A stretch of 64,000 nt of DNA from Shigella phage TB004: sequence record MW822011. One strand, given 5' to 3'. Below, piece after piece: positions 5,009 to 23,692 of this stretch. The translations under genes were made by a program, and so were the position numbers. Numbering within the stretch: position 1 is the first letter of the stretch; every line of letters starts with the position of its first letter. The notes under the pieces are model-generated. The model saw only the letters and a program-made list of their open reading frames with translations, ran no database searches and had not been told where the DNA came from.

Positions 5009-6987
5009 TGTGATATAGGCTCCAAATCGATAGTTAAGTATTGTGGACGTAAGTCATTTTCAAATACAATCAGTGAACCATCGCGAGTAAAGATAACATC
5101 ATCGGTTGGGTCAGAATATAATTCAATAGTCTGAACTTCAAATTTTTCAGATGTTAAATTAATTTTAGCGATATTCCAATAAATCACATCAGCTGGGTAA
5201 TTTATTTCACCGATAACATAGTATTTGTCGCGTCCATCAGAATTTGCTAATTTGTTAAAATCGTTGCCTGTATATGGCTGAATGTTTTCATTTTCTGTAA
5301 CATCGCCAGAAGCAAATGGACCAATAATAACTTTACCAATTCCTTTAGAATCTCGGTCTGTTGATACTATGCGAACGTCATATAATACATCTTCTTCTAA
5401 ACCAGTATCAGGATTCACAACCTTTCGTCCAGAATTAAATGAAAACGTATTAGATTCCATAGAACGATCTTTTATTTGATTATTGTATTTAATACCTGCT
5501 TCAGGCGTTTTATAGAAGTTTTGTACTTCACGAACAATTTGAATTGTCGCTGATGAACCAATGATAGAATGATCTGCATCATCTACATATGTCAACATCT
5601 TAGATTTAGCGAAAGATGAGTTAAAAATTTCTACGTCTTCGGTATAATAACGATCAATTTTATCAATTATTTGACCTTCAAGCCACTGTTCGGATTCTTG
5701 CAACTTATTTAAAGCATATGTGACTTTTAAATTAGTCTTAATAAAAAGATAATTAGGAGAAATAATTGATGGCGTAATAGGAGCTAAATTATAGTCTTTG
5801 AGATAATTTTTAATATCTTCGCGTTGTACAGTAGTTAAATACAACCCTGATTTAGGTTTAGCAGCAATAAATGCATAACCAGGTTTAGTAGAATCAGTGA
5901 AAGTCTGAACTGCTTGAATAATAGAACCAAATCTCTCTGAAACGAATGTATCATAGTCAGTCGCAGTTACGCAGCGTTGCTGGGTTTCGCGTTTAATAGT
6001 ACCCAATTCGCGAATACGCTCAATATCTTCTGGATCGCCGCCGCCATCTGCCCCAACAAAATCTGGGTCATCGTTTGGATTTTCATTAATGTTGATGACA
6101 GTTATATTTGTCAATGTATCTGCATATGAAAATCCGACAGCGCCATTCGCATCTGCGCCGTTAGTACTGATGTACTCAATAACAATCGTAGAGTTCTGGG
6201 TAGGTTTAAGACCCCCAATATAATTAGCAGTCAATGCTCCTTCTGCCGCATTAACAGAAATCTCACCTTCACCAAAATAAAACTCAGTATTTCCATCAAT
6301 AGTTTCACGCATGTAGTAAATTGTTGATGTAGAACCAGCATGAACCATTGACTTTCTTGTCCAGTTAATCCATTCTGCTCCATCAACGTATAGTTTAACT
6401 TGGTTTCTATCTATATTTTTGTCATAAATGATAATAGGTGTTAATTTATCATAAATGATTTCAGTTCTTACTATACGTCCCTGGGCCAATTTTAAACGCG
6501 GAAAATATTGGTTATTTTTATCGCGAATAGCAATAACATCTTCGGTAGAGACAAAGTTATAAGGATTAACTGAAGTATCTTTTGCATATGCTAAAAAGCG
6601 AGTACCACGAGGAATAGTAATGTAATTTCTATTCAATGCGTCTGTACAAGTTAGCATAATTTCAGTTTGAGCAGCTGATTTTGAAGTAGGTAAATATCCA
6701 TTATCTTGTGCAGCTTGAACTACTGAACTGCGCAAATTAGCAGTACGCATAAAGCTTTCATATACGGCAGCATTACCAAACTGCTGAATGTATAATGTAT
6801 TATAAGCCAAAAGGTCGCACAGAACGTTTAATCTTGAGCCTTCAAAATCATAATCCAAAAATTCATTTTGGCCATTAAGCCATTCAATGAGGTTTTGTTT
6901 TATTTCAGCAAATGTACCCCCGACGAATATCTCGGGAATAGCATTTGCTGTTCTTGTTAATTGATAATTTACAGGGGTATTTGCCAT
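5005..6987 (-). CDS. 6: baseplate wedge protein gp6
   Basis: 660-aa ORF; size and synteny match T4 gp6. Confidence 0.85.
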   Translation of the reverse strand: MANTPVNYQLTRTANAIPEIFVGGTFAEIKQNLIEWLNGQNEFLDYDFEGSRLNVLCDLLAYNTLYIQQFGNAAVYESFMRTANLRSSVVQAAQDNGYLPTSKSAAQTEIMLTCTDALNRNYITIPRGTRFLAYAKDTSVNPYNFVSTEDVIAIRDKNNQYFPRLKLAQGRIVRTEIIYDKLTPIIIYDKNIDRNQVKLYVDGAEWINWTRKSMVHAGSTSTIYYMRETIDGNTEFYFGEGEISVNAAEGALTANYIGGLKPTQNSTIVIEYISTNGADANGAVGFSYADTLTNITVININENPNDDPDFVGADGGGDPEDIERIRELGTIKRETQQRCVTATDYDTFVSERFGSIIQAVQTFTDSTKPGYAFIAAKPKSGLYLTTVQREDIKNYLKDYNLAPITPSIISPNYLFIKTNLKVTYALNKLQESEQWLEGQIIDKIDRYYTEDVEIFNSSFAKSKMLTYVDDADHSIIGSSATIQIVREVQNFYKTPEAGIKYNNQIKDRSMESNTFSFNSGRKVVNPDTGLEEDVLYDVRIVSTDRDSKGIGKVIIGPFASGDVTENENIQPYTGNDFNKLANSDGRDKYYVIGEINYPADVIYWNIAKINLTSEKFEVQTIELYSDPTDDVIFTRDGSLIVFENDLRPQYLTIDLEPISQ

Positions 6988-13620: not shown

Positions 13621-13893
13621 ATGAAAACATTTAAAGAATTTATCAATGAAGCTACTTTTAACGAAAAAGTAAAAATTAGTAAAGCTGTCAAGACTTTGAT
13701 TGCTGACATCAATTACCTATATGATATTGATTTAACTGACTATGTAACAGTTGGTAACAAACGTAACTTTTTCGTGTTTGACATCTCTGAACTTGACCAG
13801 AATCAAATTAACAACATTGAGCGTTTTGCTAATGATAAGGGTCTTCGTCATGAGTCAGCGGGTTATAAAAAATACGCAATTTATTTAAAATGA
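13621..13893 (+). CDS. ipI: internal protein I-like, N-terminal capsid targeting sequence MKTFKEFINEA
   Basis: ATG with GGAG RBS; N-terminus matches the MKTYQEFIAE-type targeting sequence of T4 internal proteins; position after 57B. Confidence 0.6.
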   Translation: MKTFKEFINEATFNEKVKISKAVKTLIADINYLYDIDLTDYVTVGNKRNFFVFDISELDQNQINNIERFANDKGLRHESAGYKKYAIYLK

Positions 13894-13953: not shown

Positions 13954-14262
13954 ATGAAAACATTTAAAGAATTTATCAATGAAGCGGCTGCGCCAAAGAC
14001 ATTCGTTATTAATACTCAGGCGAGTCTTGATGATGAATACGCGGAGGCAATTCTGAAGTCACTTGCTAAGAACGGTGTTGAAGTAATTGCTTCGGACTTT
14101 AAGAAAGGGGCTTCCGAGATGTTTATTTCTATAACTAAAGGATCTAAAGCTAAGATTAAATCATCATTCGGAGTTGCTCGTACCGATCAAATCGACAATC
14201 ATGACTTTAAACAAACTGGTGCTAAACGGCAGAATACAATTGCATCACGCGGAATAAAATAG
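13954..14262 (+). CDS. second internal-protein-like gene with identical targeting sequence (MKTFKEFINEAAAP...) and different cargo
   Basis: 102-aa ORF with the same leader and first 11 codons as ipI. Confidence 0.55.
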   Translation: MKTFKEFINEAAAPKTFVINTQASLDDEYAEAILKSLAKNGVEVIASDFKKGASEMFISITKGSKAKIKSSFGVARTDQIDNHDFKQTGAKRQNTIASRGIK

Positions 14263-20403: not shown

Positions 20404-20759
20404 ATAAAGTCAAATATTCGCTTCCTGAGTCATTTTTAATTTTTGCTGTGGCGTTGGCTGCAGCTCTTGCCGGTAGTCTTATTGGATTAATGATTGACTG
20501 TATTATTTTAAACATCCGCAGTAACGTCAGCGGTATAGTAGATATAATAGAAGTTTGGAGTGAACTTCATTATACTATAGCAATTTCATTATTTTCATTC
20601 TTTAGCATCATTTTATATTTTCATTATGATAATTTTAAAATAAATTGGCAAAGAAAAAAGGATTACAAAATACAATTAAAAGAATATAATAACTACATGT
20701 CTTATATTGAAAATGAATCAATGAAAGAGTTTGTGAGTGATTGTAGGAAAATCAAATGA
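20385..20759 (+). CDS. small two-TM membrane protein, paralog 2
   Basis: Two hydrophobic helices; C-terminal EFVSDCRKIK. Confidence 0.5.
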   Translation: MQKPKLNKVKYSLPESFLIFAVALAAALAGSLIGLMIDCIILNIRSNVSGIVDIIEVWSELHYTIAISLFSFFSIILYFHYDNFKINWQRKKDYKIQLKEYNNYMSYIENESMKEFVSDCRKIK

Positions 20760-20874
20760 TTTTAAAAACTCGCTGGTATGATTTAGATGATGGGGACGAT
20801 GGCATTTCAGTCGATAGAGTTGACTGGAGCGGCTGTTCCGAAGATATGAAAATTTGCTGATTAGGGAGTTTAGA

Positions 20875-21239
20875 ATGGGATATCAACCAGTTAAGCCATC
20901 TACTGCAACAGATGATAAATTCGTGTGTATTCGAAACGGCCGCGCTAAATTAACGAACGCTGATTGGTTTACAGGCAAGAATATGCTTCTATGGTATATC
21001 ATTAGTCTTCCTGTGTCATCATTCGTATTTTATTTCTTTGGAAAAAATCCAATGGATAGAATAGGAGATTGGGCTCTTTTTACTCTGCTTGTTAATATTT
21101 TTATAACAGCAATACTATCAGGAATATGGTGCGTGTTCATTGAAATGCCATGGCGGTTACGTAGACAGCAAAAGATTTTTGATGAAAAGAAATATACTCA
21201 AAATTTAAATAATTTTATCACCGAATGCAGGAAATTAAA

Positions 21240-21243
<4 letters not shown>
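20875..21243 (+). CDS. small two-TM membrane protein, paralog 3
   Basis: Two hydrophobic helices; C-terminal NFITECRKLK. Confidence 0.5.
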
Positions 21244-22210
<967 letters not shown>

Positions 22211-22212
22211 AG

Positions 22213-22246
22213 TTGTTTACTTTCTCCTAAAACTGTGATAGTATAT
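22213..22246 (+). promoter_or_regulatory. T4-type early promoter
   Basis: GTTTAC ... TGTGATAGTAT. Confidence 0.5.
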
Positions 22247-22281
22247 TCACAGTTACTAATTAAAATATTTAAAGGAAACAC

Positions 22282-22849
22282 ATGAAAACCTATAAAGAAT
22301 TTATCGCTGGAAAAGGCCAAAGGCATTAATAAAGATGAGTGGACTTACCGAGGAAACGGCTTTGACCCTAAAACAGCCCCTATTGAACGATACTTAGCTA
22401 CAAAAGCTTCCGACTTTAAAGCTTTCGCTTGGGAAGGACTTCGCTGGCGTACCGATCTAAATATTGAAGTTGATGGGCTTAAATTTGGCCATATTCAAGA
22501 TGTTGTTGCTAGTAACTTGGATGCAGCTTTTGTTAAAGCTGACGGTGACCTTCGTCGCTGGAATTTAAAACTATTCTCTAAACAGAAAGGCCCGGTGTTT
22601 GTGCCTAAAGCTGGTAAATGGGTTATTGATAATAAATTAGCTAAGGCTGTCAACTACGCTGGTCTTGAATTCGCCAAGCATAAATCATCATGGAAAGGTC
22701 TTGATGCAATGGCCTTCCGTAAAGAATTTGCTGATGTTATGGCTAAAGGCGGCTTTAAGGCAGAAATAGATACCTCTAAAGGTACGTTTAAAGACGCTAA
22801 TGTTCAGTACGCTTACGCTGTTGCTAATGCAGCCCGTGGTAATTCTTAA
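22282..22849 (+). pseudogene. ipIII: internal protein III-like gene interrupted by a +1 frameshift after codon 13
   Basis: MKTYKEFIAGKGQRH-stop, then an open shifted frame (KGINKDEWTYRGNGFDPKTAPIERYL...) to 22849; removing one C near 22317 restores a single ORF of about 189 aa. Confidence 0.65.
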
Positions 22850-22957
22850 TAAAGCCGAGTTCGAACCCGGTAATAGATAAATATAGAAACAGACAATTCG
22901 CACGCATGAATTGTCCCAAACTTAAAGAATAAAACTATTTACATTTAAAGGAAACAC

Positions 22958-23260
22958 ATGAAAACATATCAAGAATTTATTACTGAAGCGCGAGTGAGTG
23001 CAGGTAAATTAGAAGCCGCTATAAATAAAAAGGCCCATTCATTTCACGATTTGTCCGATAAAGACCGTAAGAAACTTGTAAGCCTTTATATTGACAAAGA
23101 GCGTATTCTCGCTCTTCCTGGCGCTAATGAAGGTAAACAGGCCAAGCCTTTGAATGCTGTCGAAAAGAAAATTGATAACTTTGCTTCTAAATTCGGTATG
23201 TCTATGGATGACCTTCAGCAAGCGGCTATCGAAGCAGCTAAAGTAATTAAAGGTAAATAA
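22958..23260 (+). CDS. ipII: internal protein II-like (100 aa) with MKTYQEFITEA targeting sequence
   Basis: Targeting-sequence N-terminus; size and position between ipIII and denV. Confidence 0.65.
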   Translation: MKTYQEFITEARVSAGKLEAAINKKAHSFHDLSDKDRKKLVSLYIDKERILALPGANEGKQAKPLNAVEKKIDNFASKFGMSMDDLQQAAIEAAKVIKGK

Positions 23261-23261
23261 C

Positions 23262-23294
23262 AGTTTACTTTCTCCTAGAATTGTGATAGTATAT
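23262..23294 (+). promoter_or_regulatory. T4-type early promoter, near-duplicate of the 22213 copy
   Basis: GTTTACTTTCTCCT...TGTGATAGTATATTCA. Confidence 0.5.
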
Positions 23295-23317
23295 TCATAA
23301 TTACTTGGAGGGGTAAA

Positions 23318-23682
23318 ATGACTCGTATTAATTTGACTTTAGTATCTGAACTTGCTGATCAACATTTAATCGCGGAATACCATGAATTGCCGCGTGTTTT
23401 TGATATAATTCGTAAACACGCGGCAAATGGAAAAATGATTATAATCCATGCAAATCAGCTATTAAGTTGAGTCAACAACGACTCGATGAAAAAATTTTAA
23501 TGAAGCCGCATTGGTATAAGTATTACGGCAAAAATATTTACATTCAAATAACATGGGAACAAGCTGGACCTCATGATTCTGTGAGGGATTCCCGCCAACC
23601 TGTAATAAGGTCGAGCCCAAGTGCGGTAATGGGTAAATACAGAAATGGACAATTCATGCGCCACGGAATGGCCCAAATTTAG
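23318..23682 (+). pseudogene. denV: denV (endonuclease V, pyrimidine-dimer glycosylase) with internal deletion and frame change
   Basis: N-terminal 46 aa [17 protein letters not shown]... then stop at 23470; C-terminal remnant SQQRLDEKI..KPHWYKYYGK in another frame. Confidence 0.65.
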
Positions 23683-23692
23683 AGATAACAAA

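Follow-up and report, generated by a model that had tools for sequence, protein, structure and literature searches.

The closest described system is ipIII of phage T4. The first ten residues of T4 IPIII constitute a capsid-targeting sequence (CTS), the prohead protease gp21 cuts after Glu10, and residues 8 and 10 are required for gp21 processing (PMC9026906). IPIII is non-essential in T4, and mutants exhibit slower head maturation and a burst of ~40% (PMC9026906). The protein is required by T4 for infection of E. coli ECOR17, and ipIII has been lost repeatedly in laboratory evolution (PMC9391042). As IPIII is non-essential and its gene is repeatedly lost in the laboratory, its loss is tolerated on permissive hosts. 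The ipIII region is also a documented site of minihomology deletions in T4 (PMC8262927).

We analysed a 64,000-nt stretch of DNA from Shigella phage TB004 (sequence record MW822011), referred to below as the window, in which the ipIII reading frame is broken directly after the CTS-coding segment. From sequence comparisons we conclude, with a probability of about 0.85, that ipIII of this phage is a pseudogene produced by a genuine, recent and private 11-nt deletion in a non-essential, host-range-related gene.

The ipIII locus and its reading frames

Judged from its similarity to sequence records, the window belongs to a Tequatrovirus closely related to T4. The nearest record was Escherichia phage vB_VIPECOOM01 (VIPECOOM01), with an identity of at most ~95.6% over a 24-kb stretch. 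Within the e-to-denV locus the best record identity was at most ~97%, T2 (AP018813) being among the collection compared. T2, historically a v-minus phage, was therefore rejected as the identity of the window, the more so as neither the ipIII nor the denV junction was shared by any record. The lysozyme gene e is followed by the ipIII-like region (22282-22849), ipII and denV, and the order e, ipIII remnant, ipII, denV remnant is the same in T4, JE01 and VIPECOOM01 (Table 1). The promoter/stem-loop module upstream of ipIII is conserved in these three phages, and the equivalent site in SA21RB carries the annotation T4 early promoter.

Table 1. Coordinates of features at the ipIII locus and of related genes in the window
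Feature	Position	Strand	Basis
Split gene for an e.2-like membrane protein of the Y06M family; A5 to A4 at 20849-20852	20756..21243	+	
e (lysozyme)	21716..22210		
T4-type early promoter and stem-loop module (GTTTAC...TAGTATATT, CACAG..), 5' of ipIII, intact	22215..22257	+	
Shine-Dalgarno AAGGA (22272-22276) and ipIII ATG (22282-22284), intact	22272..22284	+	identical in intact homologues
Shortened frame, 15 codons + TAA, peptide MKTYKEFIAGKGQRH	22282..22329	+	sequence, translation, homologue alignment
Deletion junction, wild type ATCGC[YGAAGCTTCTG]TGGAA	22308..22309	+	alignments with 12 intact homologues
ipIII remnant, +1 frame, 179 codons + TAA	22310..22849	+	translation, PHROG 5341, T4 alignment
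ipII, intact, 100 aa, CTS MKTYQEFITE/A	22958..23260	+	PHROG 7857 E=4.5e-55
denV remnant, frameshifted by loss of an internal 187 bp, junction at AATGG 23426-23430	23318..23544	+	
ipI-locus ORFs, intact, 90 and 102 aa, start MKTFKEFINE/A (CTS-like propeptide)	13621-13893, 13954-14262		

The frame that begins at the ipIII start codon ends after 15 codons at a TAA (22327-22329), which is followed immediately by a second TAA (22330-22332). Residues 1-9 of the encoded peptide (MKTYKEFIA) correspond to the CTS, and residues 10-15 (GKGQRH) are out-of-frame. The frame read from 22283 contains a TGA at 22283-22285 and is then open from 22286 to the TAA at 22847-22849. From GAA 22310 onwards this frame encodes mature IPIII without its first three residues. 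The remnant is identical to T4 IPIII at 168 of 179 residues (94%; T4 residues 15-193), and it matched the PHROG 5341 profile 'internal virion protein' with E=1.8e-108 over profile positions 15-192 of 192. On the strength of these matches the resemblance to IPIII is homology and not chance. Thus residues 1-9 of the CTS, MKTY(K/Q)EFIAE, are kept, Glu10 is gone, and the mature domain is not in frame with the CTS. An earlier sequence-only reading had described an ipIII-like gene broken just past the targeting peptide and had named an alignment to T4 ipIII as a check. That alignment, together with the profile match, bore out the identity of the gene, and the sequence and its translations bore out the position of the break.

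The 11-nt lesion and its age

Alignment with 12 intact homologues, including JE01, VIPECOOM01 and T4, revealed that 11 nt are missing from ipIII of the window. The junction can be placed from 22307^22308 to 22309^22310, with TG 22308-22309 assignable to both sides. Codons 8-14 read ATC GCY GAA/GAG GCY TYT RYN G(A/G/T)A in 12 of 12 intact relatives. The closest alleles (JE01, SCS4 and VIPECOOM01) have ATC GCY GAA GCT TCT GTG GAA AAG, compared to ATC GCT GGA AAA G in the window. The deletion removes the codons for Glu10-Ala11-Ser12-Val13 and also shifts the frame. As a result the gp21 cleavage site after residue 10 (I/L-x-E followed by A) is absent, whereas E10-A11 is present in all 12 intact relatives. 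The sequence-only reading had placed an extra C near 22317. Removal of one C at that position does restore an ORF of ~188 aa, as does removal of any single base within 22286-22326, but the lesion is the 11-nt deletion; an extra C is ruled out by the homologue alignments, which place the deletion at 22307-22310. As codons 10-13, and with them the gp21 site, are lost, a single-base 'repair' would still yield a protein that is targetable but non-processable.

The most likely origin is a spontaneous small deletion at a short palindrome, for which slippage during replication and end-joining are candidate mechanisms. An 8-bp palindrome, GAAGCTTC, lies inside the lost segment, and the flanking homology is 2 nt (TG) if parental codon 9 was GCT and 0 nt if it was GCC.

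A 100-nt probe spanning the deletion matched ~565 phage records, and the junction was found in none of them. The best full-length match was Shfl2, with 88.3% identity and an 11-nt gap. The exact junction pattern gave 0 matches in IMG/VR, JGI metagenomes and GTDB genomes. Control patterns (wild-type or downstream) gave 0, 0 and 1 match in the same three collections, which hold almost no Tequatrovirus ipIII, so their junction negatives weigh little. In a codon alignment with the 12 intact homologues, 0 of 565 sites of the window ipIII carried a private nucleotide state, compared to 0-11 in the other sequences. This absence of private substitutions indicates that the deletion is very recent. The differences from relatives are mainly synonymous, e.g. 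8 synonymous to 3 non-synonymous against one relative (L013). Taken together with the lack of private states, this pattern indicates that the ipIII ORF was under selection until very recently. Recent inactivation had been one of three options offered from the sequence alone, and it is the best supported of them: the lesion is private, no site in the gene is, and no damage is seen in the promoter, the Shine-Dalgarno sequence or the start codon.

With these signals intact, translation from ATG 22282 would be expected to yield the 15-residue peptide only, and the 179-codon ipIII body would be left untranslated in the +1 frame. IPIII would then be absent from heads. Going by T4 genetics, the phage should be able to grow, although its heads would mature more slowly, its burst would be reduced and its host range would be narrowed. 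The deletion was presumably tolerated since the host used for propagation does not require ipIII.

Neighbouring lesions and internal-protein cassettes

As an indirect test of whether the deletion is real, the integrity of other genes was surveyed with 118 annotated proteins of VIPECOOM01 as tblastn queries on the window. Matches were obtained for 101 proteins, and only three genes were interrupted (e.2-like, ipIII and denV), the other 98 being intact. The window contains 403 A/T runs of at least 5 nt; with so many runs and so few broken genes, its sequence is not generally prone to indel or homopolymer errors. All three broken genes lie within 3 kb (20756-23690) in a series of six consecutive genes, e.2-like, nudE, e, ipIII, ipII and denV. 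Our own combinatorial estimate from the survey counts gave p ~0.006 for random placement of three lesions in six consecutive genes. The ipIII deletion is one of three lesions, all of them private, in a 3-kb accessory, hyperplastic region. This clustering suggests relaxed selection on the accessory block or a history specific to the block.

The loss of one A from the e.2-like gene was not shared by any of 480 matching records, and it may reflect either a true mutation or a sequencing error in the homopolymer. In denV (endonuclease V; region 23318-23690) the AATGG repeat is present at both ends of the deleted segment in relatives, and the window junction was shared by no record in the collection compared. 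The frame shifts after ~36 native residues, and the normal stop position has CAA in place of TAA. With denV truncated after ~36 native residues, UV sensitivity similar to that of T4 v-minus is predicted. Shortened denV calls were also observed in two relatives, at 3361-3729 of L011 (122 aa) and 3555-3863 of L023 (102 aa), compared to 138 aa; hence denV truncation is not unique to the window genome.

The CTS system itself is, as read from the gene sequences, still used by this phage: ipII and the two ipI-locus genes are intact, and each CTS ends in E/A. Neither of the two VIPECOOM01 internal-protein genes at the ipI locus has a counterpart in the window, indicating that the two phages carry different internal-protein cassettes there. 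An identical copy of the IPII protein was found in 449 blocks of public assemblies. The interval from e to denV is known to vary. Two look-ups of loci that have either IPII or the lysozyme protein in common with the window returned 20 loci, and only 4 of these contain ipIII. In the remaining loci e is directly followed by denV, e is followed by ipII, or other small CTS-type genes are present. Two direct repeats of 43 nt, each 91% identical, occur at the locus. One is the promoter/stem-loop (PeSL-like) module, found before ipIII (22215-22257) and before denV (23263-23305); the other comprises the Shine-Dalgarno sequence and CTS of ipIII (22267-22309) and of ipII (22943-22985). Relatives without ipIII or ipII show that cassettes are gained and lost here, and both repeat pairs are plausible substrates for such events.

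We also observed a perfect 14-nt inverted repeat, CGCATGAATTGTCC / GGACAATTCATGCG, at 22903-22916 and 23647-23660 around the ipII-denV segment. Its first arm (22903-22916) belongs to a hairpin, GACAATTC...GAATTGTC. In one public 353-kb contig (L010; ENA ERZ724095 NODE_1, 5216-6303), bacterial genes of the LysE and LysR types come directly after a T4-like segment comprising e, ipII, denV and the genes next to them. The contig has the look of a chimeric metagenome assembly and not of a T4-like phage integrated in a chromosome.

Alternative explanations

The deletion is very likely real. It is unlikely that ipIII is intact in the phage and that the 11 nt were lost in the consensus, or that the record captured a minority deletion variant. 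Exact look-ups of the 50-aa denV and 110-aa ipIII fragment proteins returned nothing on record, i.e. no second copy of the genome from an independent assembly, and the lost segment holds the palindrome described above. Three lesions in 3 kb could mean that the assembly is locally poor, and the 1-nt homopolymer change in the neighbouring e.2-like gene has the form typical of a sequencing error. In addition, the glucosyl-hydroxymethylcytosine of T-even DNA impairs native nanopore base-calling. However, loss of 11 nt is an unusual type of read error, all but 3 of the 101 syntenic genes are unbroken even though the window has 403 A/T runs, and the nearby 187-bp denV deletion is bordered by clean repeats (AATGG) of the kind that marks real T4 deletions. 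It is very improbable that inactivation of ipIII was itself favoured, be it as escape from a nuclease (CRISPR/restriction) at the CTS-coding site, as escape from an IPIII-triggered defence, or through relaxed/positive selection on a permissive laboratory host. Deletions allow T4 to evade Cas cleavage in the ipII/ipIII region (PMC8262927), ipIII was lost again and again in experimental evolution (PMC9391042), and three accessory genes are broken in six consecutive genes (p ~0.006). Nevertheless, no selective agent is directly evidenced, neutral loss of dispensable genes accounts for the same data, and the reported escape deletions are mostly larger, with at least 3 nt of flanking homology. Also very improbable is a wider reading in which the deletion, instead of being neutral decay, was selected either as escape from a nuclease or defence directed at the ipIII CTS-coding DNA or at IPIII, or because head loading is altered by the abundantly made free CTS peptide MKTYKEFIA-GKGQRH or by an uncleavable CTS-IPIII from rare +1 shifts. 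If the deletion was selected in this way, the three-lesion cluster among six accessory genes would mark a recent host shift.

Recoding, which the sequence-only reading had also offered, is highly improbable. IPIII could in principle be expressed by a +1 shift within 22286-22326, by a hop from GGA 22309 to GGA 22352, or by reinitiation at AUU 22325, giving an IPIII whose CTS is either uncleavable or missing. Nothing interrupts the downstream frame, the sequence offers both an A-AAG context and a matching pair of GGA codons, and a T4 CTS with a residue other than Glu at position 10 still targets, unprocessed (PMC9026906). Inspection of the sequence nevertheless supported none of the three routes. 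A slip of tRNA-Lys is conceivable at AAA-G (22312-22315), but the next codon is the common GGC and not a hungry or stop codon. The codon preceding the stop is CAU, for which re-pairing on AUU is impossible, and the SD-like AAAGG adjoins this P-site (last sense) codon without the 3-nt spacer of the prfB type. GGA 22309 has an in-frame partner at 22352, but it is followed by AAA and not by a stop codon as in gene 60, and no hairpin is predicted. The fold of 22270-22400 had an MFE of -15 kcal/mol (z=+1.13), and 176 of 200 shuffles were at least as stable. The ipIII frame is free of ATG, GTG and TTG codons from 22286 until 22517. Close to the site of termination there is a single start-like codon, AUU 22325-22327, overlapping the UAA; its product would lack the CTS and so would not be packageable. 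The closest ATG, at 22335, belongs to the third frame and opens a 20-aa peptide. The shifted arrangement was found in none of ~565 related records, and ipIII is a single ORF in 12 of 12 aligned homologues. Thus a +1 frameshift, a gene-60-like hop and AUU reinitiation were each rejected as candidates, as none was backed by sequence inspection or folding. As the frameshift is not conserved and neither a slippery or stimulatory element nor a stable RNA structure was found, the recoding option is unsupported.

Comparison with known T-even systems

Pseudogenisation of ipIII is already a known phenomenon, and only the allele in the window is new. The appropriate annotation is an ipIII pseudogene resulting from loss of 11 nt, in place of a short hypothetical ORF with a separate orphan ORF, and no recoding site should be entered; beyond annotation the lesion matters little. 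The genotype predicts an IPIII-less head, a probable modest burst defect and no growth on IPIII-requiring hosts, following the T4/ECOR17 precedent, as well as UV sensitivity via the broken denV.

The window gene resembles T4 ipIII (NP_049735; PHROG 5341 / Pfam PF26861) in its position between e and ipII/denV, its early promoter, its Shine-Dalgarno sequence and its start codon. CTS residues 1-9 are near-identical, and the body is 94% identical over residues 15-193. T4 ipIII differs in having codons 9/10-13 and the Ile-x-Glu/Ala site, whereas the window gene lacks the 11 nt and its body is out of frame. Neither described class of translational recoding provides a match. Programmed +1 frameshifting of the prfB type is conserved and depends on a slippery P-site codon ahead of a stop or hungry codon, together with an SD-like stimulator at the right spacing upstream or a structure downstream, an arrangement that is absent from the window ipIII. 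In the gene 60 bypass the take-off codon directly precedes a stop codon within a hairpin, and GGA 22309 has neither.

The closest functional parallels are the laboratory T4 ipIII-minus phages, i.e. Black's amber IPIII- and IP0 strains and T4 delta-e/IPIII/IPII, in which a non-essential injected head protein is lost as in the window, and the ipIII deletions of Srikant et al. 2022, which likewise cause loss of function. T4 ipIII-minus mutants are viable, with a reduced burst and no growth on hosts such as ECOR17, and the same phenotype would be expected for the window phage. However, those mutants are ambers or large deletions in T4, whereas the window contains a natural-looking 11-nt frameshift in another Tequatrovirus background. 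With respect to mechanism, the 187-bp denV deletion between AATGG repeats (5 nt) fits the T4 minihomology deletions of Wu et al. 2021 (PMC8262927). The homology in that class is 3-13 nt, so the ipIII deletion, with 0-2 nt, is an imperfect fit; it resembles instead the small homology-independent deletions of 1 and 13 bp (PMC8262927). The repeated flanking modules of the window are also a feature of T-even internal-protein cassette polymorphism, in which hyperplastic regions are rearranged by PeSL shuffling (PMC2839356, PMC4122927). Whereas that polymorphism consists of excision or swapping of whole genes, the window ipIII carries a small internal deletion, an earlier stage of loss. It therefore provides a small, clean case of accessory-gene loss at its first step in a T-even hyperplastic region.
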